Shown piece after piece: positions 4,039-53,632 of a stretch of 64,000 bases of DNA. The stretch lies in IMG/VR virus record IMGVR_UViG_3300026125_000001; one strand, given 5' to 3'. The position numbers were made by a program, and so were the translations under genes. Below the pieces are notes generated by a model. It searched no databases, had not been told where the DNA came from, and worked only from the letters and a program-made list of their open reading frames with translations. This DNA comes from an uncultured virus (IMG/VR IMGVR_UViG_3300026125_000001). Its lineage: Duplodnaviria > Heunggongvirae > Uroviricota > Caudoviricetes. Each line of letters starts with the position of its first letter. Positions within the stretch are counted from its first letter, which is position 1.

Positions 4039-4299
4039 TTACAACTTCTCCTTTAATATTTCGTCAATCTCTTCCATAGTATAGTCTAAAATACCATGTT
4101 TCTGTAATAGTTCTATACTAACATAAGTCCCTTTTTCCAATCCTTTGTTGAATCCTTCTTCTAAACCTTTATTGAACCCGATCCTGGCTCCAACCCGAGC
4201 ACCATAATGAGAACCTTTCATGTACATAAAATACAAACCGAGTCCAAATACCGCTAGGATAAATGCCCCAAAAAGTTCTTTACTGGTTAATAAATCCAA
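4039..4299 (-). CDS. Hypothetical membrane-anchored protein with GxxxG repeats
   Basis: Hydrophobic N-terminus; GFNKGLEEGFNKGLEKG. Confidence 0.55.
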   Translation of the reverse strand: MDLLTSKELFGAFILAVFGLGLYFMYMKGSHYGARVGARIGFNKGLEEGFNKGLEKGTYVSIELLQKHGILDYTMEEIDEILKEKL

Positions 4300-4684
4300 G
4301 GTATAATTCCTCCTCTAGTTCGTACGCTTCTAATTCCCAAGGAAACTCCCTGTAGTCTTCGCCTTCCCACTTGGCTCCTCGCCAAACTTTTTCCTGTTTC
4401 TTAAGGCTGAGTTCGCCCTTATGGTACTGTTTAACGTGTACCATTTCGTGAAGAACGGTTTTAATAATATCTTCTTCGCTGAGGTCTGAGTTGACTGATA
4501 TTTCGTAGTATTTGCCGCCTACTCCGTGGCAATAACCGTGTTCCCATTCGCCCATCGGTTCTATTTCTACTTCTACGCTGAGTGCTCTAGTCTTAGGTAG
4601 TAATACTGAAATCGCGTAGTAAACTGCCTTTTCTACTTTGCTGGTAATTTCTGTATTGTCTGAATATGCGTAAACTTCTAACAT
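4280..4684 (-). CDS. HExxH zinc metallopeptidase-like early protein
   Basis: TVLHEMVHVKQ and Y..PWELEA motifs. Confidence 0.7.
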   Translation of the reverse strand: MLEVYAYSDNTEITSKVEKAVYYAISVLLPKTRALSVEVEIEPMGEWEHGYCHGVGGKYYEISVNSDLSEEDIIKTVLHEMVHVKQYHKGELSLKKQEKVWRGAKWEGEDYREFPWELEAYELEEELYLGFINQ

Positions 4685-8662: not shown

Positions 8663-9594
8663 AAAACCTCACTGTTCTTATAAGCATAATTAAGCGCAGA
8701 ATTTGCCTCAAGCAGTAAAGGTCTTTTCTCATACCAATTGCCAGTTTCTCGGTCAAGCTCTCTCGCCATCATTTCAATTTCGTTTCCGGATATCGGGTAT
8801 CCACTTTTAATCGCATTAAATGCAACTGCTACCATAAATTGATACATCTTATGATACCAACCAGTCTCAGAAATAGCTCGGTATTCAACCAGCATTTTCT
8901 TATTGACAAACGGACAATCATGAATACTGCTCCATTTAAATTTTTCACGGTTGGGAAGTTTAGCTTTACGATGAGCAATAATCTCTTTCTGCATAGCCTC
9001 CGGAAGATTGTCGATGAAGTTGTTTGATTGTTTCTGGATAAAGGGGTGTTTCTTTATCAACTCATCGGGATCAATGTAATCACCGCGATTACTAAAGATG
9101 AAGTTGTTAGCGCCAGCATACTCCGCAGGTATGTAATACATCCGAGACAAATCTTTAGTCTGTTTATCTCCAATTGAATCGAGTTCGGTGTTGAGCGCAA
9201 ACCAGAATGCTTTAATCTTATCCGCTTTAACTCCTGATTTAAGTGGGAAGACCAACCTAAACTTTGGATGATCAGCGCTACTGCTAGCAGTACTGTAACA
9301 GACAAAATCCCAAGAACCAAACTTAGATCTAAGTTCATTTTCTAAGTCTCCCTCGAACTTATGTTCATCAACATCAACAGCAGCCCAACCAGCCCATTCT
9401 ATAACATTCGCATTTCGACGTTTCTCGCCTTCCAAATATACTGCTGGCGAAATTAGTTGAGCAGCCTCTTTACCTGCTAGGGGCTGCGAGGCAAGCTTAT
9501 ACAAGAGTTCTTCGAACTGTTCCCAGGTCTCGAAGTCCATGCGCTTATTTGTCTTATTATCGAAACGATTCTTGAAAATTGTTAGCGAATACAT
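8659..9594 (-). CDS. Archaeo-eukaryotic primase (AEP)-like protein
   Basis: DVD acidic motif, YSTASS..HPKFRLVFPL, KDLSRMYYIP; helical C-terminal domain. Confidence 0.6.
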   Translation of the reverse strand: MYSLTIFKNRFDNKTNKRMDFETWEQFEELLYKLASQPLAGKEAAQLISPAVYLEGEKRRNANVIEWAGWAAVDVDEHKFEGDLENELRSKFGSWDFVCYSTASSSADHPKFRLVFPLKSGVKADKIKAFWFALNTELDSIGDKQTKDLSRMYYIPAEYAGANNFIFSNRGDYIDPDELIKKHPFIQKQSNNFIDNLPEAMQKEIIAHRKAKLPNREKFKWSSIHDCPFVNKKMLVEYRAISETGWYHKMYQFMVAVAFNAIKSGYPISGNEIEMMARELDRETGNWYEKRPLLLEANSALNYAYKNSEVL

Positions 9595-10127
9595 GACATC
9601 ATATACTCCACGACTTTTTGCGTATCCTCAGGAGTCTCGTGTTTGAACTCAACAATACATCCCTCTTCTTCGCCGAATAGGGTTTGCTGATCGCCGAAAG
9701 CCTCTACTATATTTTTACATTTAGTTGCTACTGTTTGGATGAACTTATCACTCTGCTCCGAGCCACGTTCATCGTATCGACGTTGACGTTCTTTATCCGA
9801 GACCGTTAGATGGATTATGACTTTATCTTCAACAGATTCAAAAACGCCTTTGTTATTCAATCTATCACCTTCACCTATTATAACCTCTTCTGGGTTAGAA
9901 GTAAAGTATTCAATTGCTTTTGGCGCGACAGCCATAGACAAACGGTCTGTCCCTGAGAACGTTTCGCCTTCTTCGTATTTCCCGAGCACGCGCACGTTCC
10001 CGCTCACGTGCGTGTCTAGCAGGTCAATCGGACGGTCGGTTTTCCACCCATCGAATCTGCTCATAAATTCTTTCATGATTGTAGACTTACCTGTTCCTGG
10101 CACGCCAATCAAATAAATTAGTTTCAT
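9582..10127 (-). CDS. P-loop kinase, 5-hydroxymethyluridine DNA kinase (5-HMUDK)-like
   Basis: GVPGTGKST, SGTDRLSM, GEGDRL; adjacent to AA:DNA transferase. Confidence 0.8.
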   Translation of the reverse strand: MKLIYLIGVPGTGKSTIMKEFMSRFDGWKTDRPIDLLDTHVSGNVRVLGKYEEGETFSGTDRLSMAVAPKAIEYFTSNPEEVIIGEGDRLNNKGVFESVEDKVIIHLTVSDKERQRRYDERGSEQSDKFIQTVATKCKNIVEAFGDQQTLFGEEEGCIVEFKHETPEDTQKVVEYMMSCIR

Positions 10128-10134
10128 AATATCC

Positions 10135-11148
10135 TCACATAAAAGCATCAAGACCCATTGAGACTGGTTCGTCTTCTTTGAACATCCAGTCTAGTCGGTC
10201 AATATTATTAGTTTCAACGAACTCAGCCATCTTACCCTTTTGGATAACGTTTGAATCATACAGCCTAGCATCAAGAGTTTCTCTACGAGCGTCCCAAAGT
10301 ACACGCCACTCAATACCATACCAACCATCAGATTCAACCTTAGAGATCTCCTCTGCGACCCTGTCATTGTAATACCCCAAGTATCTGCCATGACGCACTC
10401 GGAATATCTTCTTAAATGAACAGAGACAGGTTTCCATTGTAAACGGATTTATCTCAGAAGTCAAGTGTGGGAAGCGACTTTTCATCTCTTCCATTATACT
10501 TTTTGCTTCTGCTTCGAGCCAAGCATATTCCCCAATAGTCTGACGTACATCGTACTGATCATCCTTACCGAGCGCCAGCAATAAGCCATTACGATGAGAG
10601 CGAGAACCGCTAAAGTCATCTAGCAATAAACTATCTGGTACGTTTGGGATATTGGCGGTATGATTTAGGTGCTGTAGAAAGAACCAAGTAGAATAGCGTC
10701 CGAACTTGTAGAACTTATCTTTGACGACTTCATATAGTTTATCGAAATTTTGTTCTTCGTTATCCCCCATATACTGCTCAAATACTTCGCGCTGGGTTTT
10801 ATCTCCAACGAAAGCATGATAGGATTTGAACATATCGGCTAAGTGTCCCTTAGACCATTTTGTGTCCGTTTGGTAGCGGAGACGTTTATAGTTCTCCGTG
10901 TTCCATTGGTTCATTCGGTCATAGGTAGCCAACTCAAAGTCAGGGAACTCATTAATAAGAACCCAAGCGGTTGGTAGGTAGTATGTATTGCCATACAACC
11001 AAGACAGCCAGATACGCTGCTCTGAGTTATGTTCAAATCTATCATTAAGGTAATTGGTCATCCAAACAGCGGGGTCGCAGTCCTTGAATTCCAAGGACCA
11101 CGCATACCACTTAATGAAAGCCTCTCTTCGGTTTTCGTTATAGTTCAT
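10135..11148 (-). CDS. Amino acid:DNA transferase (aGPT-PPlase family)
   Basis: HhH-like FYKFGRYSTWFFLQ, METCLCSFKK, RYLGYY. Confidence 0.8.
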   Translation of the reverse strand: MNYNENRREAFIKWYAWSLEFKDCDPAVWMTNYLNDRFEHNSEQRIWLSWLYGNTYYLPTAWVLINEFPDFELATYDRMNQWNTENYKRLRYQTDTKWSKGHLADMFKSYHAFVGDKTQREVFEQYMGDNEEQNFDKLYEVVKDKFYKFGRYSTWFFLQHLNHTANIPNVPDSLLLDDFSGSRSHRNGLLLALGKDDQYDVRQTIGEYAWLEAEAKSIMEEMKSRFPHLTSEINPFTMETCLCSFKKIFRVRHGRYLGYYNDRVAEEISKVESDGWYGIEWRVLWDARRETLDARLYDSNVIQKGKMAEFVETNNIDRLDWMFKEDEPVSMGLDAFM

Positions 11149-12455
11149 TAAAGATTTACTCGTTTTTGTTTCGTCTCGAATGCTTTAAGAATTCGAATCT
11201 TTATATCGCAATCGGGGTGAACACGTTTTAAAGCTTTATGTAGCTTGGCTTCAGATTCCGTCCAAAGCTCGTATTCATTAATGTTGCCGTGGTGAATAAT
11301 AAGCATTCCATTCCAATTATCCATACCGCCCATCTTGTTAAGAACCCCACCAATACCAGAGTTGTAACAAGCGCCAGAAGATACCGTAATCACTGCCAAA
11401 TCAGGGTTGCGGTCTCTAACAGATTTAGCGATAGCGTCAAGCTCCTTTGAACTGTATTTAATAAAGTTAAGGTCAGCTGTCGCCTTATCTGTTTTTACGT
11501 TAATGACTGCTTTACTGTAGTTAGAAGCGATCTCCCTTAGCGACCAAAGTGGGTAAAAAACTTCTAAACAAGTGTTTTTAAATTTTTCACTTTGTAGGAT
11601 CTCAAGGTTTGGGTCATTATCCCTAAAGTTGTTCGCCCATAAGTTTGTGATAGCTCTCTGGCAATCACGTGAACTATTTGGTTTCTTCAATTTAGGGTTG
11701 TGATTAGCAACGTTACCAAACTTATCCATATTCGACTGGCTATCATTAAACTCCGAAGAATTTAAGTATATAACTGGCGCTGATTGCCAATTAGCTACAT
11801 CTACTGCCCTGGAAGTGTGGTTTCCGTCTAGTATAGTTCGTGTACCGTCTGGGCTGACGCAAACTATAATTGGAGAAACGTTAGTACGAGCCTCTGCTGG
11901 GTCGTCTTCCATCTTCTCCGCAATAGCTTGTACGTGTTTCGGGTCTAATAATACTAAACGAACCTGGTTGTGATCAAATTTACGAATTTCCTCAATATTA
12001 GTTTCAACTACTTGGTATTTCCCCTCTTGGCAGTTTTTCCAAATCCGATTAACTAGTTTTGTATCGATTACATCGTAAGTGTCTTTTGATTCTGTGATTG
12101 GCTCTATACCCTTCTCAACCCAATCTATTCCTCCCTGAATTACGCTCTCTGAAAGTTCCTCCCAACCTTTACAACCTACTCCGCCTCCGTTTGACTTGTT
12201 GTAAAACTGCCCGTTGGTGCGTGCGTTAAAGTGGTGTAGTAGTTTGCTTTCGTATTTTATAGCTTCTTCGGGTGTACCTACAAAAAGGATTGACCTGTGT
12301 AGTAAACCTCTTGACCAATCCCTTTTAAGCTCTTTGTCTTCTGATGAAAATTTGTAGCCGTCGTTGATTTCGCTACTCTTACGAAATCCTACGTATTTCT
12401 TTTTGTTCTGAATATTATTCCAACCGTATACGAACGCTTGATTTTTTTTAGCCAT
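11148..12455 (-). CDS. GIY-YIG-like N-terminal domain fused to ParB/Srx-like domain
   Basis: FVYGW..KKYVG..Y.FSS..E..FYNKSNGG; PIIV..ILDGNHT. Confidence 0.6.
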   Translation of the reverse strand: MAKKNQAFVYGWNNIQNKKKYVGFRKSSEINDGYKFSSEDKELKRDWSRGLLHRSILFVGTPEEAIKYESKLLHHFNARTNGQFYNKSNGGGVGCKGWEELSESVIQGGIDWVEKGIEPITESKDTYDVIDTKLVNRIWKNCQEGKYQVVETNIEEIRKFDHNQVRLVLLDPKHVQAIAEKMEDDPAEARTNVSPIIVCVSPDGTRTILDGNHTSRAVDVANWQSAPVIYLNSSEFNDSQSNMDKFGNVANHNPKLKKPNSSRDCQRAITNLWANNFRDNDPNLEILQSEKFKNTCLEVFYPLWSLREIASNYSKAVINVKTDKATADLNFIKYSSKELDAIAKSVRDRNPDLAVITVSSGACYNSGIGGVLNKMGGMDNWNGMLIIHHGNINEYELWTESEAKLHKALKRVHPDCDIKIRILKAFETKQKRVNL

Positions 12456-12543: not shown

Positions 12544-13101
12544 TCAGAAGAAATCTTCTAACCCTTTTGGTGATTCAAGAAAGACTTCGACGCAACCGCC
12601 TTTGCCTTTCTTGTGTACTGCGGAGTAGATGACAGGATCGTCTAGCTGATAATAGCTATCAGCGAAAGTATTGTTTATGCGGAAGATAGATAGCTGGCAG
12701 CCACTTTTCTGTTTACCTTGGAAAGTAAAGCCGATCTTCTCGTAGAACTTAATAGCAGGGATTTCAGAGGACACACGGAAGTATGTCGCCTGCCCCTTTA
12801 CTCGCTCAAGAGAATCTTCGCAAAGGATTCGGGCAACACCCTTACCCCTATGAGCCGCAAACGTATGGAGGAGTTGTAGGTTTGCTACTTTTGGTGAACG
12901 TTTAGACACAGTCGTTATGATAGCGCCAGCAAGCTGGTCGCCATCCCATAACCCTATACACTTATCCCATAACCCCTGCATGTTCGCCTTCGCAATAAAG
13001 GTATTGGCGAACTTATCCGCAGGGTCATCAGATATAGCGGAGGTAAACTCCTCCGCTGTCGTGCTACGCAACTTCAATGTATGCTCGCTGTTTTTTGCCA
13101 C
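12544..13101 (-). CDS. GNAT acetyltransferase (start uncertain, possibly TTG 13077)
   Basis: HRGKGVA acetyl-CoA motif, AIKFYEKIGF. Confidence 0.85.
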   Translation of the reverse strand: MAKNSEHTLKLRSTTAEEFTSAISDDPADKFANTFIAKANMQGLWDKCIGLWDGDQLAGAIITTVSKRSPKVANLQLLHTFAAHRGKGVARILCEDSLERVKGQATYFRVSSEIPAIKFYEKIGFTFQGKQKSGCQLSIFRINNTFADSYYQLDDPVIYSAVHKKGKGGCVEVFLESPKGLEDFF

Positions 13102-13944: not shown

Positions 13945-14559
13945 CTATGGTTGTAAGTCTATACCAGCAAAACTAACTCGGTTTTTTGATTTAGTTTTGA
14001 ATTGACTTCTACTTATAATGTCAGAAGTCGAAGCAAATATACGACCGTGTTCAATGTCAGCACACCATAATGGTCTTTTACCATTACGCATATATTCTAT
14101 TCCATTTACTGTCAAAAGTAAAGCGGAAATTGAAGAATTTGCCCACTCATTTAAAGAAGGGCGATGGAAAAGAAGTTCGGTGTCGTTAGCGGTTTCGCAT
14201 TTGATTCCATAGAGTCTATACCAATTCTCCGGAAGTTCTTGCGAAATAACACCGTTATGAACAACAGATAACTTTTCGTCAGCAATAGGTTGATTAAAAC
14301 GCAAGTCAGAAGTACTGTACCGACAATGAGCGATAGCTGTTATGTTACCGTTCTCGTCAACCCAGTCGATTGGTGGATGATGTTTTATAAATTCAGATGC
14401 CTCAACAGCTTCCTTTATCGTATGTATCTTACCCTCTTTTAGGAAAGACACGCCAGTAGCGTGCCTCCCTCGGATTTGTGATTCAAAGAATAGGGTGCGG
14501 ATAGCACTTATATCATCTCTTGTTACGTTTTTTAATTCAAATCCCATTACTGCGCACAT
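13945..14559 (-). CDS. Class II (Ntn) glutamine amidotransferase
   Basis: Start re-called at MCAVMG (N-terminal Cys, GAGGA SD); RGRHATG, HCRYST, HNG, NDTE. Confidence 0.85.
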   Translation of the reverse strand: MCAVMGFELKNVTRDDISAIRTLFFESQIRGRHATGVSFLKEGKIHTIKEAVEASEFIKHHPPIDWVDENGNITAIAHCRYSTSDLRFNQPIADEKLSVVHNGVISQELPENWYRLYGIKCETANDTELLFHRPSLNEWANSSISALLLTVNGIEYMRNGKRPLWCADIEHGRIFASTSDIISRSQFKTKSKNRVSFAGIDLQP

Positions 14560-14613
14560 TAAAAGAAATCCTCTAAACCACATGTCAGGGCTAACCCCTG
14601 AAAATCGCAAAAT

Positions 14614-14661: not shown

Positions 14662-14690
14662 ATTATACTACAACTTAAGGAGAAAGTAAA
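14662..14690 (-). promoter_or_regulatory. Early promoter overlapping the HNH RBS, facing the GATase
   Basis: TTTACT-N17-TATAAT. Confidence 0.75.
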
Positions 14691-15430
14691 TGGACAGCAA
14701 ACTTATTTATTCAATATTAGCATCAAAACCTCACAACAAACATTACATGTCAAGATACATTCGGTTAATAGAGGCTTACAATGACTCTACCGAAGGCGAG
14801 AAGCACCACATATGTCCAAAGGCTAAGGATATGTTCCCAGAATACACAAACTTAGTGGAAAACCCTTGGAACAAAATATTGCTCCCAACTAGGGCGCATA
14901 GGTTAGCCCACTTAATACTCGCTAAAGCGTTTCCTGATGTATTATCGCAATCGTATTCGGCAGTCAAGTTCTTTAGAAAAGATATAAACTCTAAATTGTA
15001 CGAATCTTATGTCAGTAGGAAAAATTCTCTACATTCTAAAAGGATGTCCGGAGAGAATAATCCATTCTTCGGCAAAACTCACAATGAAGAATCTAAATCT
15101 AAAATGGGTTGGGCTGCCTACGACGAAGAGACAAGAAAACAAAGATTATCAAATAAAAACCTATCTGAAGAAGCAAGGGATAAATTTTCAGAAAGCGGTA
15201 AATTAAACTACCATCATATGCACACAGAAGAAGCTAGGGAAACACACAAGCAATCTATGAAAGATTTCTATAATGACAAAGATAAACGTTTAGCCCGAAT
15301 ACAGAAATATAGAGGAACTTTCAACAGCAGAGAAGATATAACTTGCCCTCATTGCGGAGTGGTATCCAAACACAAAGGTAACATGAATAGATACCACTTC
15401 GACAATTGTAAAACCCTAAGAGAAAAATGA
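14690..15430 (+). mobile_element. Free-standing HNH homing endonuclease (Mob-like; NUMOD3 and Zn finger)
   Basis: EKHHICP..N..H..AH; GENNPFFGKTH; CPHC..HFDNC; inverted orientation. Confidence 0.85.
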
Positions 15431-16864
15431 TTCTAAATCATTAGAGTTGTTGAAATGATCCCATAACCCTGGTTGGTTTTCTTTCATCAACTCTTCGCCT
15501 CCATGTTCTAAAAGGTATTGATACCATTCTTCTGAATTATCGTTCATAAAACCAGGACTCACGCCATTCCAACGCTCTTTCCATAACGGATGTTCTTTGT
15601 TGGTTCGACGATCGTCAACAAACTTACGACGCAGCGCCTCATAATCCCAAGAACCTAGTTGTAACATATCCTCACGGAAGTAGAAAACAAGGGACATACG
15701 AAGTAGGTCTTCTTCGCCAGAGTCAGGGGCTTCAATAGGCTGATTGCCGTGAATTATTCGCATATTATCAATAAGGAGTAGATCTCCTGGTCGAACATCA
15801 ATAGCTGCGCGAACTTCCGGAGCAGTAAGGTATCCGCCCTTCCATGATTTACCTTTCGGAGCAATTACAGTAAGGTTAGAGAAACCCTCATTTAATGAAC
15901 CAGCATCCTTATGACAAGCCATACGAGCATTTCGGTCAGACTGAGTTGTATTGACTGTAACGGTCGTAAAGGTAGTATCCTCGCCAATCAAGAATTTAGG
16001 GTCGATACTGTCAGCACATCTTTTTTGGTACGCATAACGCTGCGGAAGTAAGCGAGCAAACTCTTGGTCGAGTTTACGGGCAAACGGGTAGCACTTCTCA
16101 AAGTCTTCTCGGTTATGCTCTACATGGCTAGTAGCACGACCATAAGGGATACGAGGGTAGCGTCCATAGAAGCCAGTGATTCCGGACCACAGCGGAGTAG
16201 CGTAGGAAGTTCCGCTGATCATCGTATCGCGAACGTGTATAGCATATTCCCGAGCTTCATCTACCGGAAGGGAACGGAGTTTGGCTAGGCACTGATCAAA
16301 GAAATTGCGGTAATCCTCATATTCTTTCTCGACCTTTTGAACCAACCAAACTTCGCCACGTGTTTCGTACTGCTTGGTTTCATGTTTCTTGATAATGTCC
16401 TCAACTGGGTCAGTACCCATAACGTTCTGCGGAGAACCCTTAGCAAAGAAGTCCAGGATATCGCGCTGGAACGGAGTAACCCATTCGCGACCCTGACTTG
16501 TTTCGGCTCGAGGACCAGCAGCCATACCACGGTTGTTAGACTCAGCAGCAGCGCTGTAAAGACCAGCATAAGCACCGTCTTGTTCTTCCTGCGTGAATAC
16601 GTTCTTACGGAATTTGAACGCAACACGGTCTTCACCTATACAGTTGATACATTGCTTATCGCAGTCAGTAGAAGCGACTACATCACACGATGGCGGTAGA
16701 TAAAAGTCAGCGTCTTTGTCAATGAGAATATCGAATGAATCCTCATCAGCGTATTTGCCGATGAGGTTCTCTTGGTCTTCAACGAAGAGGGCAACATAAA
16801 CATCTTGCCCTTCGTCACCGATATACTTTTGCCATTGCCGACCGTTAATTGTAACTTTTTCCAT
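15416..16864 (-). CDS. TET/JBP-like 2OG-Fe(II) dioxygenase (5-methylpyrimidine oxidase)
   Basis: TFTTVTVN, HKDAG (HxD), HGN, RMSLVFYFRE. Confidence 0.8.
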   Translation of the reverse strand: MEKVTINGRQWQKYIGDEGQDVYVALFVEDQENLIGKYADEDSFDILIDKDADFYLPPSCDVVASTDCDKQCINCIGEDRVAFKFRKNVFTQEEQDGAYAGLYSAAAESNNRGMAAGPRAETSQGREWVTPFQRDILDFFAKGSPQNVMGTDPVEDIIKKHETKQYETRGEVWLVQKVEKEYEDYRNFFDQCLAKLRSLPVDEAREYAIHVRDTMISGTSYATPLWSGITGFYGRYPRIPYGRATSHVEHNREDFEKCYPFARKLDQEFARLLPQRYAYQKRCADSIDPKFLIGEDTTFTTVTVNTTQSDRNARMACHKDAGSLNEGFSNLTVIAPKGKSWKGGYLTAPEVRAAIDVRPGDLLLIDNMRIIHGNQPIEAPDSGEEDLLRMSLVFYFREDMLQLGSWDYEALRRKFVDDRRTNKEHPLWKERWNGVSPGFMNDNSEEWYQYLLEHGGEELMKENQPGLWDHFNNSNDLESFFS

Positions 16865-19432: not shown

Positions 19433-19840
19433 TCAAAGATTAAAAAATTTGTTCACGATTTCTTCGCGTTTGGCATAACCGATACCCAAACTCCAGAGGA
19501 AGTATTCGACGTTGTCTTCTTCAGTTTCTTTCATCATACAACGAAGTGCTGCTTTCCAATCACCCACACCTGATGCCATCAGATTCTGGAGGTCAGCCTT
19601 GAACGATTCAAGAGCTTCAGCTTCGCGCTGTTCTTCAAGGGCAATGTCGGCTTGCATCTTATCCATCATTCTATCAAGCGCATTGTTGAAACCCCACTCG
19701 CTCATGTTCACCCAAGAATCCCACTCAACACCACGAGGACGGTATCCGTAGACATCTTTGTGGAAGTCAGAGAAGCAGATATCCTCCATCTCAGCAATAC
19801 GAGCGTGGGACATTGCTGGGGTAGTAATTTTCATAGTCAT
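19433..19840 (-). CDS. Hypothetical early protein
   Basis: SDFHKDVYGYRPR motif; SD and early promoter. Confidence 0.7.
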   Translation of the reverse strand: MTMKITTPAMSHARIAEMEDICFSDFHKDVYGYRPRGVEWDSWVNMSEWGFNNALDRMMDKMQADIALEEQREAEALESFKADLQNLMASGVGDWKAALRCMMKETEEDNVEYFLWSLGIGYAKREEIVNKFFNL

Positions 19841-19870
19841 AACAAAGTTCCTCAATCAATTTATACATGT

Positions 19871-19899
19871 ATTATAGCAATTGATCGATAAAAAGTAAA
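19871..19899 (-). promoter_or_regulatory. Early promoter
   Basis: TTTACT-N17-TATAAT. Confidence 0.8.
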
Positions 19900-19928
19900 G
19901 CTTTTTGTTATATCAATTTAGAATATGT

Positions 19929-20165
19929 CTATTCTCTTTTATACCATTTGTACCTAATATGGTTAGGGTCATAGAACTCGACGACATCTTCGGTGACAGA
20001 GATAATCTCATCAACTTCTATGACTTCGTTATCTAACCTTAGTTTACATTCTTGGATGGGAGGGGAATCGTATGAGTATTGGTATACATCATTTTCTTTG
20101 TGGATTTCGGTGGATTCTTTTGTTTCTATGTGAGTGAATCGACTCTCAACTATGTACATTTTCAA
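19929..20165 (-). CDS. Hypothetical protein
   Basis: Co-oriented ORF filling the gap. Confidence 0.5.
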   Translation of the reverse strand: MKMYIVESRFTHIETKESTEIHKENDVYQYSYDSPPIQECKLRLDNEVIEVDEIISVTEDVVEFYDPNHIRYKWYKRE

Positions 20166-20193
20166 TGCCCTTAATTCAGATACGGTACATTCC

Positions 20194-27723: not shown

Positions 27724-27798
27724 TGGTGGGACGTACTGGGAACGATCCAGTGACCTGCCGATTATGAGTCGGATGCTCTACCACTGAGCTAACGTCCC
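27724..27798 (-). tRNA. tRNA with CAT anticodon (Ile2-like; Met not excluded)
   Basis: Cloverleaf, loop CTCATAA, encoded CCA; atypical T-loop. Confidence 0.85.
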
Positions 27799-27802
27799 AT
27801 AA

Positions 27803-27879
27803 TGGTCTCCCGAGAAGGATTCGAACCTTCAACCTACAGCTTAGAAGGCTGTTGCTCTATCCAATTAAGCTATCAGGAG
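27803..27879 (-). tRNA. tRNA-Arg(TCT)
   Basis: ACAGC-CTTCTAA-GCTGT arm, TTCGAAT, CCA. Confidence 0.95.
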
Positions 27880-27883
27880 ATAA

Positions 27884-27959
27884 TGGCTCCTCGACCTGGA
27901 CTCGAACCAGGGACCAATAGATTAACAGTCTACTGCTCTACCAACTGAGCTATCGAGGA
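27884..27959 (-). tRNA. tRNA-Asn(GTT)
   Basis: Loop CTGTTAA, TTCGAGT, CCA. Confidence 0.95.
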
Positions 27960-27963
27960 ATTA

Positions 27964-28047
27964 TGGTGGAGGAGGGTGGGTTCGAACCACCGAAGCTTTC
28001 GCGACAAATTTACAGTCTGTTCCATTTGGCCACTCTGGAACTCCTCC
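27964..28047 (-). tRNA. tRNA-Tyr(GTA)
   Basis: Loop CTGTAAA, long variable arm, CCA. Confidence 0.95.
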
Positions 28048-28144
28048 GATTGGAACTTTTATACAGAGTTCCTCAACTGTTGACAGTTTTCGGCTGGGTG
28101 TAGTAGGAGAGTAAGATCCCCAGCCTGTGGTCTGCCTTCCGTAT

Positions 28145-28229
28145 TGGTGCGGGATGAGAGACTCGAACTCTCAAGCCTTGCGGCACTAGAACCTAAATCT
28201 AGCGTGTATACCAATTCCACCAATCCCGC
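28145..28229 (-). tRNA. tRNA-Leu(TAG)
   Basis: CTAGA-TTTAGGT-TCTAG arm, long variable arm, CCA. Confidence 0.95.
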
Positions 28230-31249: not shown

Positions 31250-31289
31250 AATATAGTCTCCGTTAGGACGTTCATCAATTTATACATGT

Positions 31290-31318
31290 ATTATAGTCGT
31301 TATGCCCAAAGAAGTAAA
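31290..31318 (-). promoter_or_regulatory. Early promoter
   Basis: TTTACT-N17-TATAAT. Confidence 0.8.
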
Positions 31319-31370: not shown

Positions 31371-33533
31371 TTACGAAATCGCTTCAGCGAATTTCTTAGC
31401 AAGGACTTTGTTACCTTTCTTAGACTTAGCGAACTTCTTGAACGCTCGGGCGATATCGCCTTTCTTAGCATTATCCTTCACTTCAAACTCGTCAGCGGTA
31501 GCAGACTGACGTCCATCGATAATGAAGTATTCGTTGTAACCGTGGTGATCTCCGATAGAAACGACTTTGTCTTGGCGGAATTGCTTCATCAGCATATCCT
31601 GGTTTCGGCAATAGTACGTTTTGTACTTCGCATCACGGGAATTACTAACGATGAAGTAGTTGATACAGTTGTAACCTTTTTTACGAAGATTCTCTAGGAG
31701 TTTCTCAGTAAAGTCACGTCCGTACATATCGCCAGTGCGGATGTATTTACCCTGAACCTTGAAGAAGGTTGAACGGTACGAATCATAGCAATTAGTTCCC
31801 TGGGCATCGCCATCAGTGATAGCAACGAAGTTCACTTTCTGCAGGTTATGCTTGCGTTTGAAGTTATCAAGAACATCATGCATAACAATCAGCGTTTCGT
31901 TAAGAGGAGTACCTCCCAGGCTATCTAACTCACAACAAAAGCTGTTGAAGTAGGCATTTTTGCTTTTGTGAGTAGCACGGTACAGCGTCTCGCAGGCAGT
32001 TTTAAAGGTAGCCTTATTCATAGTAGAAGAAAGCTGCTGGATTATGCACAGCGAGCGGACGTCAATGCTATTGTTTTCACGACGGATTTCGTACCCTTCT
32101 TTAGAAAGGTCCTCGCCATAAGCCGAACCGTTTGTAGTGAACGAGTAGATCTCAAACGGCAAATTAACTTTGCGGCAGAACATTGCCAGAGTGATAGCCT
32201 GCTCAACTACATTACCAACAACCTGATTCATAGAGCCAGAGAAGTCGATGATAGAAACTAGACCGTGGCTCTTGGCATCAGGCGTAATAGTATGACGCAG
32301 GAACAAGTCATCGTTGAACTTGTAGCTGTGTAGTTTGTTTACGTCAATTACACCAGACTTGCCTTCGCTTGAGCGATTGTGCTGATCTGCAGCTTTTTTA
32401 CGCTCAAACTCTTTAGCCATAGCATTGGCGGTTTTCGTAGTTTCAGCCATGAAGTCAACGAAATCCTGACCAATTTCTTCGTAAGCGCTGATGTCCCAGC
32501 TGTCGCCGCGTTCCAAAGCTTTTTGGGTAATTTTCTGACGTCTAGCAATCACATCAGAAGCCGGAATGATTATATCTTTAATGTCATCAGCAAAGATACC
32601 CTGAGAAACTACTGGGGCATCGCCCCAGCGTCCAGTTTCAGCTAGAGACTCTTCGTTTTTACGGAAAGCATCGTCAGTGTAAGAATCGTTCCAGTCATCA
32701 CCAGCACCCAGAGAATCTACAAGCTGATCTTCTGGTGCATCTCCCTCAGAATTTCCCTCACTCTGAGTTGGAAGGCTATCCTGACCCTCGGATCCTGACT
32801 TTTCATCCTGTTCTGGTGAAGCTTCTCCAGCGCTCGAAGTTTCTTCCTCCTCTTGTCCTCTTCCACTTTCTTCAGAAGAAGGAGCTTCAATTGGATTTCC
32901 GCTTTCAAGAGTTTGACCTGAATCTTGTTCGTCAGAGCCTTCACCTTCTTGTTCAGAAGGCATAGTATTTGACTGTTTGTTTTCATTTTTTTCCTTCAAA
33001 AAATCTAAGATTTCTTTACAAACCTCGATGACGTCTTCGAAAGTCTCAACAGCCATCGCCTTATTTAGTAGCGGAGATTCATCGTCCAGGAATGGAACTT
33101 CAACCAATCCACGAGTCTTAGAAGAAACGTTGATGCGGTCGATAAAACCTAGAGAAGATACTGGTCGCTTAGAAAGTCCAAAGAAGTCGCGATCAAGCAA
33201 TTCCTGGTAGCCTTTCATGAAGTTTTTCTTCAGACCAGGGTAAGTCTCGAGGATTTTACGCTCGATACGGATATCTTCAATGATGTTAACCAGAGCACGT
33301 GGGATACCCAAGTCTACAACAGACTCGTGCCAACCTTCAGCTGGGGTGTAAAGAGCGTGGCCAACTTCGTGCCCTTCCAGCAGGTCGTAGAGGTCGTTAG
33401 ACATCTCTTTCCACATAGGTAGGTAAAGTGTACGATTGACCACATCAAACGCTGCAGTGCGCTCGCCTCGACGGACAACATTGATGTTTTCCTTAGCGAG
33501 TAGTTTAGCAAGTATAGATTTGCGTTCAAACAT
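31371..33533 (-). CDS. CobT-like peptidase-VWA protein
   Basis: HEVGH; acidic linker; MIDAS DFSGS, GTPL, TDG. Confidence 0.85.
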   Translation of the reverse strand: MFERKSILAKLLAKENINVVRRGERTAAFDVVNRTLYLPMWKEMSNDLYDLLEGHEVGHALYTPAEGWHESVVDLGIPRALVNIIEDIRIERKILETYPGLKKNFMKGYQELLDRDFFGLSKRPVSSLGFIDRINVSSKTRGLVEVPFLDDESPLLNKAMAVETFEDVIEVCKEILDFLKEKNENKQSNTMPSEQEGEGSDEQDSGQTLESGNPIEAPSSEESGRGQEEEETSSAGEASPEQDEKSGSEGQDSLPTQSEGNSEGDAPEDQLVDSLGAGDDWNDSYTDDAFRKNEESLAETGRWGDAPVVSQGIFADDIKDIIIPASDVIARRQKITQKALERGDSWDISAYEEIGQDFVDFMAETTKTANAMAKEFERKKAADQHNRSSEGKSGVIDVNKLHSYKFNDDLFLRHTITPDAKSHGLVSIIDFSGSMNQVVGNVVEQAITLAMFCRKVNLPFEIYSFTTNGSAYGEDLSKEGYEIRRENNSIDVRSLCIIQQLSSTMNKATFKTACETLYRATHKSKNAYFNSFCCELDSLGGTPLNETLIVMHDVLDNFKRKHNLQKVNFVAITDGDAQGTNCYDSYRSTFFKVQGKYIRTGDMYGRDFTEKLLENLRKKGYNCINYFIVSNSRDAKYKTYYCRNQDMLMKQFRQDKVVSIGDHHGYNEYFIIDGRQSATADEFEVKDNAKKGDIARAFKKFAKSKKGNKVLAKKFAEAIS

Positions 33534-33562
33534 GGGTAACTCCTTCAATTCAGTATACATGT

Positions 33563-33591
33563 ATTATAGTTGGAGTCTACTCGAAAGTAAA
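33563..33591 (-). promoter_or_regulatory. Early promoter
   Basis: TTTACT-N17-TATAAT. Confidence 0.8.
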
Positions 33592-33620
33592 CCCCATTTT
33601 TATACTTCTTTACTATATCC

Positions 33621-33899
33621 TTATAACTGAATTGCCTTTCTGGTTACTATAACTGAAGCGTTCTTGCTTAGGTCTACTAAACCTTTGTAACGCTCTTTGA
33701 GTTCCTTACCTAACTCCTGCGCTCGCGCTTCGCTGAATGGTTCTACTTCTATTTCGTTGAGGTACGCTATTTCTTCGTAAAGCTTCTTGCTGATCGCCTG
33801 ACCTATGCGTAGGTGTGTTAATCCTGGGTCGCTGATTAATACTACTTCGCTTGGCTGAAAACCTTGGTATGCTGCGCGCTCGGTAAAATTAACTTTCAT
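33621..33899 (-). CDS. Hypothetical early protein (coding strand TG-free)
   Basis: GAGGAG SD, own early promoter. Confidence 0.75.
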   Translation of the reverse strand: MKVNFTERAAYQGFQPSEVVLISDPGLTHLRIGQAISKKLYEEIAYLNEIEVEPFSEARAQELGKELKERYKGLVDLSKNASVIVTRKAIQL

Positions 33900-33926
33900 T
33901 TGACTCTCCTCAATTTCAATACATGT

Positions 33927-33955
33927 ATTATAGATGATGAAATGAAGGAAGTAAA
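33927..33955 (-). promoter_or_regulatory. Early promoter
   Basis: TTTACT-N17-TATAAT. Confidence 0.8.
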
Positions 33956-34003
33956 ATACCGATTTAGAATATGGATAGAACTGGAAAGAATAAGCGGTGG
34001 CTG

Positions 34004-35725
34004 TTACGCCACCACCATCTTAGAGAAATTGCGTTCTTTAGTGAACTCAATCTTAGACCGGAATTTGCCGTCAAGCTCATCCCGTTTATGTGAGATAACG
34101 AACACGTTGGTGTCGTCTTCAAGCGTACCCAGGATTTTGAGGAGGTTATCCACGCCATCCGAGTCAAGGGAACTATCAAACGTCTCGTCGAGGAGAAGTA
34201 GGTTAGTCGATACGCTGTTTTTCATTTTAGCAATTTGACGCCAAGCAAATAGCAAGGCAAGGTCAATTCGTTGTTTTTCACCTTCCGAGAAAGAACTATA
34301 GTTGAACTTGTCACGGTGGCGAGATTTAATCTCCTCATTGAATGATTCATCAAGGTTAAAGGACACGAAGAAGTCCAGCACCTGAAGATAATTATTGATC
34401 AACTTATTCATGACTGGCAGGTACTGCTTAATGACTTTGGTTTTAATACCCGTATCTTTAAGCATTTCAGCACAGGCTTCCGAATAAGTCTTATCGTCAA
34501 GCAACTCAAGTTTACGTTCGGTCAATGTATCCCTGTCAGCTATAAGTGATTCAAGACCTTCTCGGATAACTTTAACGTCGCCATCACCAACATTCATCGA
34601 ATGAATTTCTTGCTCAAGCGTTTTAATCTCCTCCTGTAATCTATCAATCTCACGGTTATTGCCGTTTATATCATTTTGAGCGGATCGGATCTTTTCATGA
34701 ATATCCTCTAGCCTTTGGATCTCACTATTAACGGCAGATATTTCCTTTTCTGCCTTATTCATAACCTCCTGAAGTTCCTTTGCCTTTACCTTTGCCTGTT
34801 CAACTTTAGATTCTTTGAACTCTGCCTCAAGCCCCTGCTCGCAAGTAGGACATTGATCATGTTCAGAAAAGAACTGAGCCTCCTTAGCGATAGACCGCAT
34901 CTTTTCCTTAAACTGCGCTCCATACTCAATCATCTTGCTTTGTTTCTTCAAAGCCTTCGCCATTTCACGGGAAGCGTCTTCCTGGTACTCTTCAATATAT
35001 TGTGAAGAGACACCATTAGAACTTTGGAGTTCAGCTACCTGAGCTCGGATGGTTAAGATCTTTTCGTTACGGATACGGACTTGTTCTTCATTCAAGTCCG
35101 TTACGTCTTTCAGGTATTTACGTTGAAGCGATATCTTTTCCTTGATCAAGTCAACGTTATAGGTCACATCTTTTATTTCCTCCTTAATCTTGGCGACCTT
35201 TTCCTTGAGGAGAACGTTCATTTTGGTGAATATATTGATATCGAGTAGATCTTCAATAACACCACGGCGAGCTCCGGTGGGCAACTGCATAAACGGAATA
35301 AACGATGAAGACCCCAAAACAACAACTTGGTGAAAAGACTTATGGTTCAATTTCAATATGTTTGATTCAAGGAATTTCTGGTAGTCTTTGACAGCAGCCG
35401 ACTGGTCTATCATTTTATCGTTTTGCCATATTTCAAATATGTTAGGTTTAATCCCCCGAACAACTTTGAACTTATGGTTACCAATTTCAAACTCTACCTC
35501 AACAACGCAGTCTTTATTATTGATAGAGTTTATCAACTGCCCCTTAGTGATATTTCGGTGAGGTTTACCAAATAGCCCAAACGAAATTGCGTCTAGGATA
35601 GTCGATTTACCCGCACCGTTGTGCCCGACAATCAAAGTTGTCGGTGCACGGTCTAGCTGTATATGAGTAAAGTTCTTCCCCGTTGAGAGGAAGTTCTTAT
35701 ATTTTACGGATTTAAAGAGGATCAT
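34004..35725 (-). CDS. 46: Rad50/SbcC-like recombination nuclease subunit gp46
   Basis: GHNGAGKS, CPTC hook, FSEGEK, LDE. Confidence 0.95.
   Translation of the reverse strand: MILFKSVKYKNFLSTGKNFTHIQLDRAPTTLIVGHNGAGKSTILDAISFGLFGKPHRNITKGQLINSINNKDCVVEVEFEIGNHKFKVVRGIKPNIFEIWQNDKMIDQSAAVKDYQKFLESNILKLNHKSFHQVVVLGSSSFIPFMQLPTGARRGVIEDLLDINIFTKMNVLLKEKVAKIKEEIKDVTYNVDLIKEKISLQRKYLKDVTDLNEEQVRIRNEKILTIRAQVAELQSSNGVSSQYIEEYQEDASREMAKALKKQSKMIEYGAQFKEKMRSIAKEAQFFSEHDQCPTCEQGLEAEFKESKVEQAKVKAKELQEVMNKAEKEISAVNSEIQRLEDIHEKIRSAQNDINGNNREIDRLQEEIKTLEQEIHSMNVGDGDVKVIREGLESLIADRDTLTERKLELLDDKTYSEACAEMLKDTGIKTKVIKQYLPVMNKLINNYLQVLDFFVSFNLDESFNEEIKSRHRDKFNYSSFSEGEKQRIDLALLFAWRQIAKMKNSVSTNLLLLDETFDSSLDSDGVDNLLKILGTLEDDTNVFVISHKRDELDGKFRSKIEFTKERNFSKMVVA

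Positions 35726-52442: not shown

Positions 52443-53632
<1,190 letters not shown>

Follow-up and report, generated by a model that had tools for sequence, protein, structure and literature searches.

One strand of a few early-type genes is depleted of TG and TC[CGT] in an uncultured T4-like phage with a probable thymine-hypermodification pathway

Why should a phage gene lack a dinucleotide on one of its two strands, and which property of the phage DNA might such a gap reflect? The question is posed by gene 1, a small ORFan in a 64-kb stretch of DNA from an uncultured T4-like myovirus, the whole of which is referred to as the window. Sequencing runs that contain the window sequence (three DNA runs, no RNA run being listed) are labelled as freshwater metagenome. 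The gp46-like protein of the window reaches at most ~51% identity to proteins of cultured phages, the best being those of Phage C48C1, Methylophilales phage Melnitz and cyanophages, a near-DNA search for the window sequence in a phage collection gave no match, and IMG/VR contains one contig that is near-identical at gene 1. The minus strand carries 74 of the 78 ORFs used.

Gene 1 and its surroundings

Gene 1 is flanked by the gp46/gp47-like recombination nuclease genes on one side and by a CobT-like/CobS-like pair on the other, and the following features define the locus.

33621..33899, minus strand: gene 1, 92-aa ORFan; sense strand without TG past the ATG and without TC[CGT]
33595..33897, plus strand: CA-free gap of 302 nt (no TG on the minus strand), reaching from the start codon to a point 26 nt beyond the stop
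33927..33955, minus strand: promoter-like site, sigma-70/T4-early-like (TTTACT-17-TATAAT), serving gene 1
33993..34016, minus strand: terminator-like hairpin closing the gp46-like gene, located before the gene 1 promoter
33563..33591, minus strand: following promoter of this type, that of the unpurged CobT-like gene, ~30 nt past the gene 1 stop

The original prediction had described a gap of about 300 nt without CA on the plus strand, which agrees with the 302 nt found; the window contains 4411 CA, its second-longest CA gap has 129 nt, and for the gap at gene 1 length x CA frequency amounts to 20.8. A recount also confirmed that no TG follows the ATG, that all nine TC are TCA, that the protein is devoid of Cys, Trp and internal Met, that CTG, TTG and GTG codons are missing, and that none of the 13 T-ending codons precedes a G. 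The expectation of 15-20 TG that had been put forward is close to the value derived from window frequencies, according to which gene 1 should contain 19.0 TG (0 found), 10.9 TC[CGT] (0 found) and 4.6 TCA (9 found). The depletion survives codon-preserving controls: with the protein fixed and the codon usage of the window 12.7 TG are expected (P = 4.4e-8) and 24.3 TG and TC[CGT] together, of which none is seen (analytic P = 1.2e-15), TC[CGT] alone giving P = 6e-7. The absence of Cys, Trp and Met from 91 residues has a probability of 0.015. Gene 1 is the extreme outlier among the 78 ORFs of the window, and its purge, i.e. the local absence of TG and TC[CGT], is real and far beyond chance.

T-ending codons are retained in gene 1 exactly where A, T or CA comes next, and TG is also missing from the codon junctions (P = 0.017 in a synonymous-codon shuffle inside the gene, P = 0.0017 in a codon-order shuffle). 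As the junction TGs are absent, the purge acts on nucleotides, not on codons, and it is the rule of no TG and no TC[CGT] that accounts for the odd codon usage of gene 1 (GTA, ATA, TTA, AGC, TAC). The antisense, i.e. template, strand is rich in the motif, with 24 TG vs 14.6 expected and 19 TC[CGT] vs 13.8. The window also contains five consecutive phage tRNA genes (27724-28229), which are Met(CAT), Arg(TCT), Asn(GTT), Tyr(GTA) and Leu(TAG); a codon bias via these tRNAs was considered and rejected, since it leaves the absent junction TGs unaccounted for.

Stop-codon counts, a promoter-like site and a Shine-Dalgarno sequence (GAGGAG) argue that gene 1 is a real ORF: its own frame has a single stop, the terminal one, while there are 14 and 2 stops in the other sense frames and 8, 5 and 8 in those of the opposite strand. 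The promoter is followed by ACATGTAT and then by the leader GTATTGAAATTGAGGAGAGTCAA, and its type suggests that gene 1 is expressed early. Because the hairpin at 33993..34016 closes the gp46-like gene, gene 1 forms a separate unit; the hairpin lies upstream of the promoter, and none was found downstream of gene 1. The purge ends at the borders given above, i.e. promoter and leader retain TGs, three of them located in the leader. Additionally, TATAATACATGTAT occurs in four exact copies on the minus strand (19863-19876, 31282-31295, 33555-33568 and 33919-33932), and the palindrome ATACATGTAT after the -10 box is a possible operator common to four early units.

The protein encoded by gene 1 has no match in Pfam or PHROG, and a phage tblastn, a word search of 5.8e9 clustered proteins and a full HMMER search of 1.84e9 representatives each recovered only the protein itself. 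A protein atlas yielded no usable match, the atlas's own model having a pLDDT of 0.42, an AlphaFold2 single-sequence model (pLDDT 47) was too poor for a fold search, and Rfam had no match on 33300-34100. Among contigs from the three samples no variant was found inside gene 1. Contigs of relatives from the same three samples match the window up to 33908 and 31296 and then diverge, and since these points lie beside promoter modules, the early units behave as exchangeable cassettes.

Further purged genes and the thymine-modification cluster

If the 78 ORFs are ranked by observed/expected dispensable TG, genes 1 and 2 stand far from the rest, and the purge of TG and TC[CGT] is the property of a class of genes, not of a single gene. 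Its other members in the window are listed here.

4280..4684, minus strand: gene 2, HExxH/SprT-like, 134 aa; 8 TG vs 27.2 expected
11148..12455, minus strand: gene 3, 435 aa, GIY-YIG-like N-terminus and putative ParB_N-like domain; 5' third depleted

Seven of the eight TG in gene 2 are Met, Trp or Cys codons, and 9/11 TC are TCA. The eighth TG, the only one that looks dispensable, is the TTG start codon of the overlapping next ORF (4039-4299), which begins inside the 3' end of gene 2. The gene downstream of gene 2 is co-transcribed and not purged. In the first 330 nt of gene 3 there are six TG, i.e. the start ATG, four Trp/Cys codons and one codon junction, internal NTG codons (ATG, CTG, GTG, TTG) are absent until nt 544, and the depletion wanes toward the 3' end.

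Genes 1, 2 and 3 all lie behind a common early-type promoter and a GTATTGARATYGAGG leader. The same promoter type and GTATTGARATYGAGG leader precede two unpurged genes, the CobT-like gene (31371-33560; 152 TG vs 134.5 expected, ratio 1.17) and the ORF at 19433-19855 (42 TG vs 36.4 expected, ratio 1.31), and the dioxygenase, kinase and transferase genes described below are unpurged as well (TG ratios 1.06, 0.92 and 1.06). In five purged segments taken together 17 TG remain vs 103 expected, 14 of which are Met/Trp/Cys codons or a needed start, the other three being two codon junctions and one Leu TTG. TCC, TCG and TCT add up to 5 vs 62.5 expected, TCA occurs 37 times vs 26.5, and neither TA nor TT is avoided. 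On the other strand of the purged genes the motif is present at ~1.4 times expectation.

The window contains a cluster of genes whose products point to a modification of thymine:

15416..16864, minus strand: TET/JBP-family dioxygenase (5mYOX), Pfam PF12851, E 1.3e-12
13945..14610, minus strand: glutamine amidotransferase (GATase)
12544..13101, minus strand: GNAT acetyltransferase
10135..11148, minus strand: amino acid:DNA transferase, PF18724, E 9e-22
9582..10151, minus strand: P-loop nucleotide kinase 3 (5-hmdU DNA kinase type), E 3.9e-17

A NUMOD3 homing-endonuclease-like gene (14690-15430, plus strand; TG ratio 0.53) is inserted between the dioxygenase and GATase genes. The gene 3 product is likely to be the activator of the dioxygenase. 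A profile of nine gene 3 homologues gave weak PDB matches to Noc (E 0.002) and ParB (E 0.07), and two of the nine family members match Pfam ParB_N (best E 4e-4), whereas the gene 3 protein of the window, searched alone, had no match. No methyltransferase family was found within the 64-kb window, either among the PHROG matches of the 78 ORFs or among the Pfam matches of the ORFs scanned. Given this gene content, the base modified by the phage is most likely thymine.

The original prediction had named TG and TC as hypermodified contexts of phages M6, ViI and phiW-14, and these are indeed in print, TS (TG/TC) being the inferred modified context in the available text of Flodman et al. 2019 (PMC6449724); the accessible part of a preprint by Yee et al. 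2025 (PMC12191111) gives TG for Pbunavirus. According to the portion of O'Toole et al. 2026 (PMC13229309) at hand, the ParB-dependent 5mYOX176 prefers NTG, then NTA, 5mYOX97, of the ParB-independent type, prefers NTC, and the reason for the partial, post-replicative modification is named as an open question. The TCA exception was not found in the available parts of published accounts of modified thymine contexts. We infer that TG and TC[CGT] form the context modified in this phage. Since the other strand of the purged genes is motif-rich, their duplex would not be free of modification.

The same gap could be due to an adenine, as the original prediction had noted: a T followed by G on one strand and an A preceded by C on the other are indistinguishable by sequence, and an enzyme marking the adenines of CA and VGA on the complementary strand would be avoided by the same rule. 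Mom-type adenine modifiers have a GNAT-like fold, and a GNAT-fold enzyme is present in the cluster. However, no adenine-modifying enzyme was identified in the window, the same rule holds in a contig (G005, see below) whose dioxygenase is paired with a TET-associated glycosyltransferase, and all enzymes of the cluster that can be assigned are those of thymine pathways (PMC13229309). We thus give very little credence to adenine avoidance.

Relatives and mirror-image purges

Homologues of gene 2 were compared at 80 IMG/VR loci, and depletion is confined to the identical copy (L082). The remaining 79 (25-41% identity) have 5.9-11.0 TG per 100 nt, like their flanks, i.e. none of the non-identical homologues shares the depletion, a result that favours the original prediction. 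Gene 2 itself has seven Met, Trp and Cys residues, the range among the homologues being 5-20. For gene 3, 14 homologue loci are listed, and the depleted ones are that of this phage (L163) and L182, with 27% identity and a similar leader, while the closest homologue (50%, L174) is not depleted. As the homologues of both genes are mostly undepleted, the purge seems to have arisen in place, within lineages.

The alternative would be that the cassettes were acquired from an unsampled phage whose codon usage avoids these steps throughout its genome. Gene 1 being an ORFan, the divergence of the relatives' contigs beside promoter modules, and the promoter/leader modules common to several genes are all compatible with such an origin. 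Yet among the loci and contigs examined none shows an overall depletion, with 0.91 as the lowest TG ratio of a locus, and depletion is seen in the gene 3 homologue with 27% identity instead of that with 50%; these two observations disfavour an import from a depleted donor. Moreover, the gene 2 homologue adjoins a DnaB-like helicase gene in 9/80 loci, as it does in the window, and T-ending codons appear in every context that permits them, as expected of a direct rule and not of a different codon regime. A foreign origin is therefore highly improbable in our view.

A scan for purged segments (210-nt scan windows, TG+TC[CGT], P < 1e-6) found four of them, from three lineages, in 990 kb of dioxygenase-homologue loci and none in 791 kb of gp46 and gene 2 loci of other T4-like phages, a comparison in which the control loci were chosen by gp46 or gene 2 regardless of dioxygenase content, the lineages are related and 4 vs 0 is a small count. 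The purged segments are as follows.

L203 and L204: ORF of ~70 codons adjoining a CobS-like gene; 233-nt TG-free run, 0 TC[CGT]
L207: ORF of 104 codons between the kinase gene and a GIY-YIG gene
L182: 5' end of the gene 3 homologue

Gene 1 and the purged ORF of L203 cannot be aligned, and an 88-aa ORF of L300 that shares 'MKV.F' with gene 1 was discarded as a relative, as it gives no alignment and is itself not purged. In the purged ORF of L203 (12640-12855; L204 6553-6768) no ATG, GTG or TTG is correctly spaced from the GAGGAG; an in-frame ATC is located 7 nt downstream, and the start codon itself may thus avoid TG. A gp55-like late sigma factor gene in L203 (2075-2677) and L205 (6171-6773) contains 18 TG (8 of them obligatory) vs ~32 expected, whereas the gp55-like gene of the window is not TG-depleted.

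Several candidates were dismissed. L175 19641-19847 is probably a spurious antisense ORF, a TC-poor region of 5 kb in G005 belongs to an acid-poor fibre-like gene and a TG desert at 21.7 kb in G002 to a repeat protein, both being compositional; AA, TT and TA deserts occur frequently in genes of low complexity, and marginal TG/CA deserts with a score of 12-13.5 are at about chance level for 1 Mb. A 259-nt AA-free run in the collagen-like tail-fibre gene of the window (53032-53291) is likewise compositional and serves as negative control for the desert scans. At 19900-20167 the window has 267 nt without GC on either strand (~12 expected), which is borderline after multiple testing; the stretch covers an ORF of 78 aa (19929-20165).

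A further ten, larger contigs from phages with the dioxygenase, together 1.02 Mb, were scanned for dinucleotide deserts, and the strongest is a TG-free run of 510 nt in G005 (gap x frequency = 33.2). This run lies on the template strand of a 115-aa gene, which has its own promoter (TTGCTA-17-GATAAT) and Shine-Dalgarno sequence and is a called protein in public data. On its sense strand CA is absent (22.9 expected) and 23/28 GA are part of TGA, i.e. the rule is the exact reverse complement of that in gene 1. A homologue with 86% identity (P0003) also lacks Gln and His and its changes resemble those of a real protein; viral and metagenome contigs yielded no DNA for it. A second case is a unit of 346-348 nt without CA on the sense strand in G004, L300 and L301, which runs from an early promoter through a 55-aa gene and a terminator into the next promoter, the mirror purge of L300 and L301 covering the distance from promoter to next promoter. 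These phages have a dioxygenase 61% identical to that of the window and a gene 3 homologue. The clean strand is thus the sense strand in the window, L203, L207 and L182, and the template strand in G005 and G004.

In G005 the dioxygenase gene is followed by a TET-associated glycosyltransferase gene (PF20691; L232, 9893-12048), genes for a peptide deformylase and a MazG-like protein lying upstream, and from its genes the locus looks like a base-J-like variant of the pathway. Here the dioxygenase is coupled to the glycosyltransferase, not to a kinase and a transferase, and as the same rule is found despite the different later chemistry, it may be the dioxygenase step that sets the modified context.

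The two orientations bear directly on whether DNA or RNA is the target. An mRNA-level cause, raised as an RNase in the original prediction, would be an RNase or RNA-modifying enzyme, either of the host or belonging to the phage's own shut-off, that attacks UG and UC[CGU], the proteins of the purged genes being made while this enzyme is active. Such an enzyme would fit the purge of the sense strand in 3/3 genes of the window and its beginning directly after the start codon, and an mRNA defence enzyme specific for a dinucleotide exists, namely CmdT, which targets GA (bioRxiv 10.1101/2024.02.24.581662, in its available text). However, in G005, G004, L300 and L301 the sense strand follows the reverse complement (no CA, GA almost only as TGA), which would require a second RNA enzyme with complementary specificity, and these mirror-image cases weaken the idea considerably. 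Furthermore, the leader of gene 1 retains three UG, the gene that follows gene 2 on the same transcript is unpurged, and the window revealed no candidate RNase. Avoidance at the mRNA level is therefore quite unlikely, and since the rule is obeyed by the sense strand in some lineages and by its reverse complement in others, the target should be a DNA motif on one strand rather than RNA.

A DNA-level cause does not necessarily imply selection. A modified or over-oxidised T may mutate fast if its strand is often single-stranded, e.g. in a transcription bubble, an R-loop or at an origin, and TG and TC[CGT] would then simply decay. The effect is strand-specific and gene 3 shows a gradient from 5' to 3', Met, Trp and Cys are lost only where this is tolerated, the seven of gene 2 being near the low end of the range of its homologues, and, according to the available text of PMC13229309, dioxygenases can oxidise iteratively and act on ssDNA, all of which a mutational by-product would explain. 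On the other hand, the depletion is total and not merely skewed, the boundaries of the purge match the limits of the cassettes, and both strand orientations exist. The CobT-like gene directly downstream of gene 1 has a normal TG content behind the same promoter, and a by-product of transcription is disfavoured for this reason, so that we regard mutational decay as unlikely.

A one-strand purge and its possible meaning

We prefer, with a probability of roughly 0.55, the reading that selection strips the phage's own thymine-modification context from one strand of a few early cassettes. Recoding of the gene 1 cassette would have affected synonymous positions, codon junctions and the amino-acid make-up of the gene product, and the context removed, T-G or T-C-(C/G/T), would be the one at which a post-replicative pathway installs a bulky thymine derivative. 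In this pathway a ParB-assisted TET/JBP thymine dioxygenase might be followed by the 5-hmdU kinase and then by the amino-acid:DNA transferase and tailoring enzymes. A purged stretch could be modified on its other strand only, i.e. it would constitute a permanently hemi-modified unit, and selection maintaining it would act on the DNA, not on mRNA or protein. The purpose may be to free the function of a few early cassettes, including that of the ParB-like partner of the dioxygenase, from any dependence on whether that strand is modified.

The original prediction had arrived at a related view, in which the gene is kept free of the phage's own bulky base on the non-template strand to allow its expression by host RNA polymerase upon entry. 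The connection with thymine hypermodification is supported by the cluster and the published TG/TC contexts, whereas the proposed mechanism is not: other genes with early promoters, i.e. the CobT-like gene and the ORF at 19433-19855, are unpurged, the template strand of gene 1 is motif-rich, and in relatives small genes are purged on the template strand. No single transcription-based purpose fits both the sense-strand and the template-strand cases.

A bolder version of the preferred reading, which we put forward only tentatively and hold to be rather doubtful, is that phages modifying thymine after replication 'blank' single strands of chosen early cassettes, the ParB-like gene among them, and that the clean strand of the hemi-modified unit, which is the sense strand in some lineages and the template strand in others, is a signal in cis for a machine that works strand-specifically. 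Its reader might be a defence sensor, a helicase or clamp loader, or RNA polymerase aided by an accessory factor. The core of RNA polymerase makes contact with a T-G step of the non-template strand, and T4 Alc senses modification; one idea is a factor that senses exposed non-template bases in the elongation complex; another is a strand-tracking helicase, clamp or packaging motor. It is also conceivable that protection is kept on one strand while the other is cleared. For the transcription of modified templates the available text of PMC4838386 contains no strand-specific data for gene bodies.

Phage thymine dioxygenases have been described only in 2021-2026, and context-specific thymine hypermodification is already known. 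If this bolder version is true, the pattern of the purge also provides the specificity in vivo from sequence alone, i.e. TG and TC[CGT] but not TCA, TA or TT, and purged genes would be a route to the modified context in uncultured phages. Moreover, recoding of one strand at a real cost to the protein would mean that the mark affects the phage itself locally, beyond shielding from restriction, and the purged genes would make up a short list of small unknown genes, together with a ParB-like gene, whose function is tied to the modification state.

The gene set of the window, i.e. TET/JBP dioxygenase, ParB-like protein, GATase, P-loop kinase and amino-acid:DNA transferase, is that of the ParB-dependent 5mYOX clade C1 pathways (O'Toole et al. 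2026, PMC13229309), for which the available text describes enzymes and neighbourhoods, not motif-purged genes. The rule of the window, TG and TC[CGT] but not TA or TCA, differs from the preference published there, as 5mYOX176 also takes NTA, and the ParB-like protein of the window has a GIY-YIG-like N-terminus, unlike the ParB partner in the accessible part of that paper. Such clusters are further marked by a co-located ParB homologue with an N-terminal nucleotide-binding domain and by the lack of a neighbouring C5-cytosine methyltransferase, the latter in agreement with the window, where no methyltransferase family was found. The TG/TC contexts are the same as in M6, ViI, phiW-14 and Pbunavirus, whose thymine hypermodification is kinase-based; there they come from whole-genome restriction resistance, and the available texts report no local or strand-specific absence (PMC6449724, PMC12191111). 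Enzymes and TG/TC contexts are thus already in print, whereas the new elements here are the restriction to a single strand, the mirror-image cases and the inclusion of a ParB-like gene. Literature judged from titles and the beginnings of abstracts, supplements aside, contained no report of local purges of a modification context.

T4-type mobile early-promoter cassettes, which undergo PeSL-type modular shuffling, carry ORFans between conserved modules and have a stem-loop next to the promoter. The window resembles them in that its ORFans lie behind shared promoter/leader modules and relatives differ at the module borders. Classical avoidance of restriction sites or motifs is genome-wide, concerns both strands and is aimed at host enzymes. 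The purge described here is like restriction-site avoidance in phage genomes in that selection would remove a short DNA word, but it is local and single-stranded, and would be aimed at the phage's own mark.
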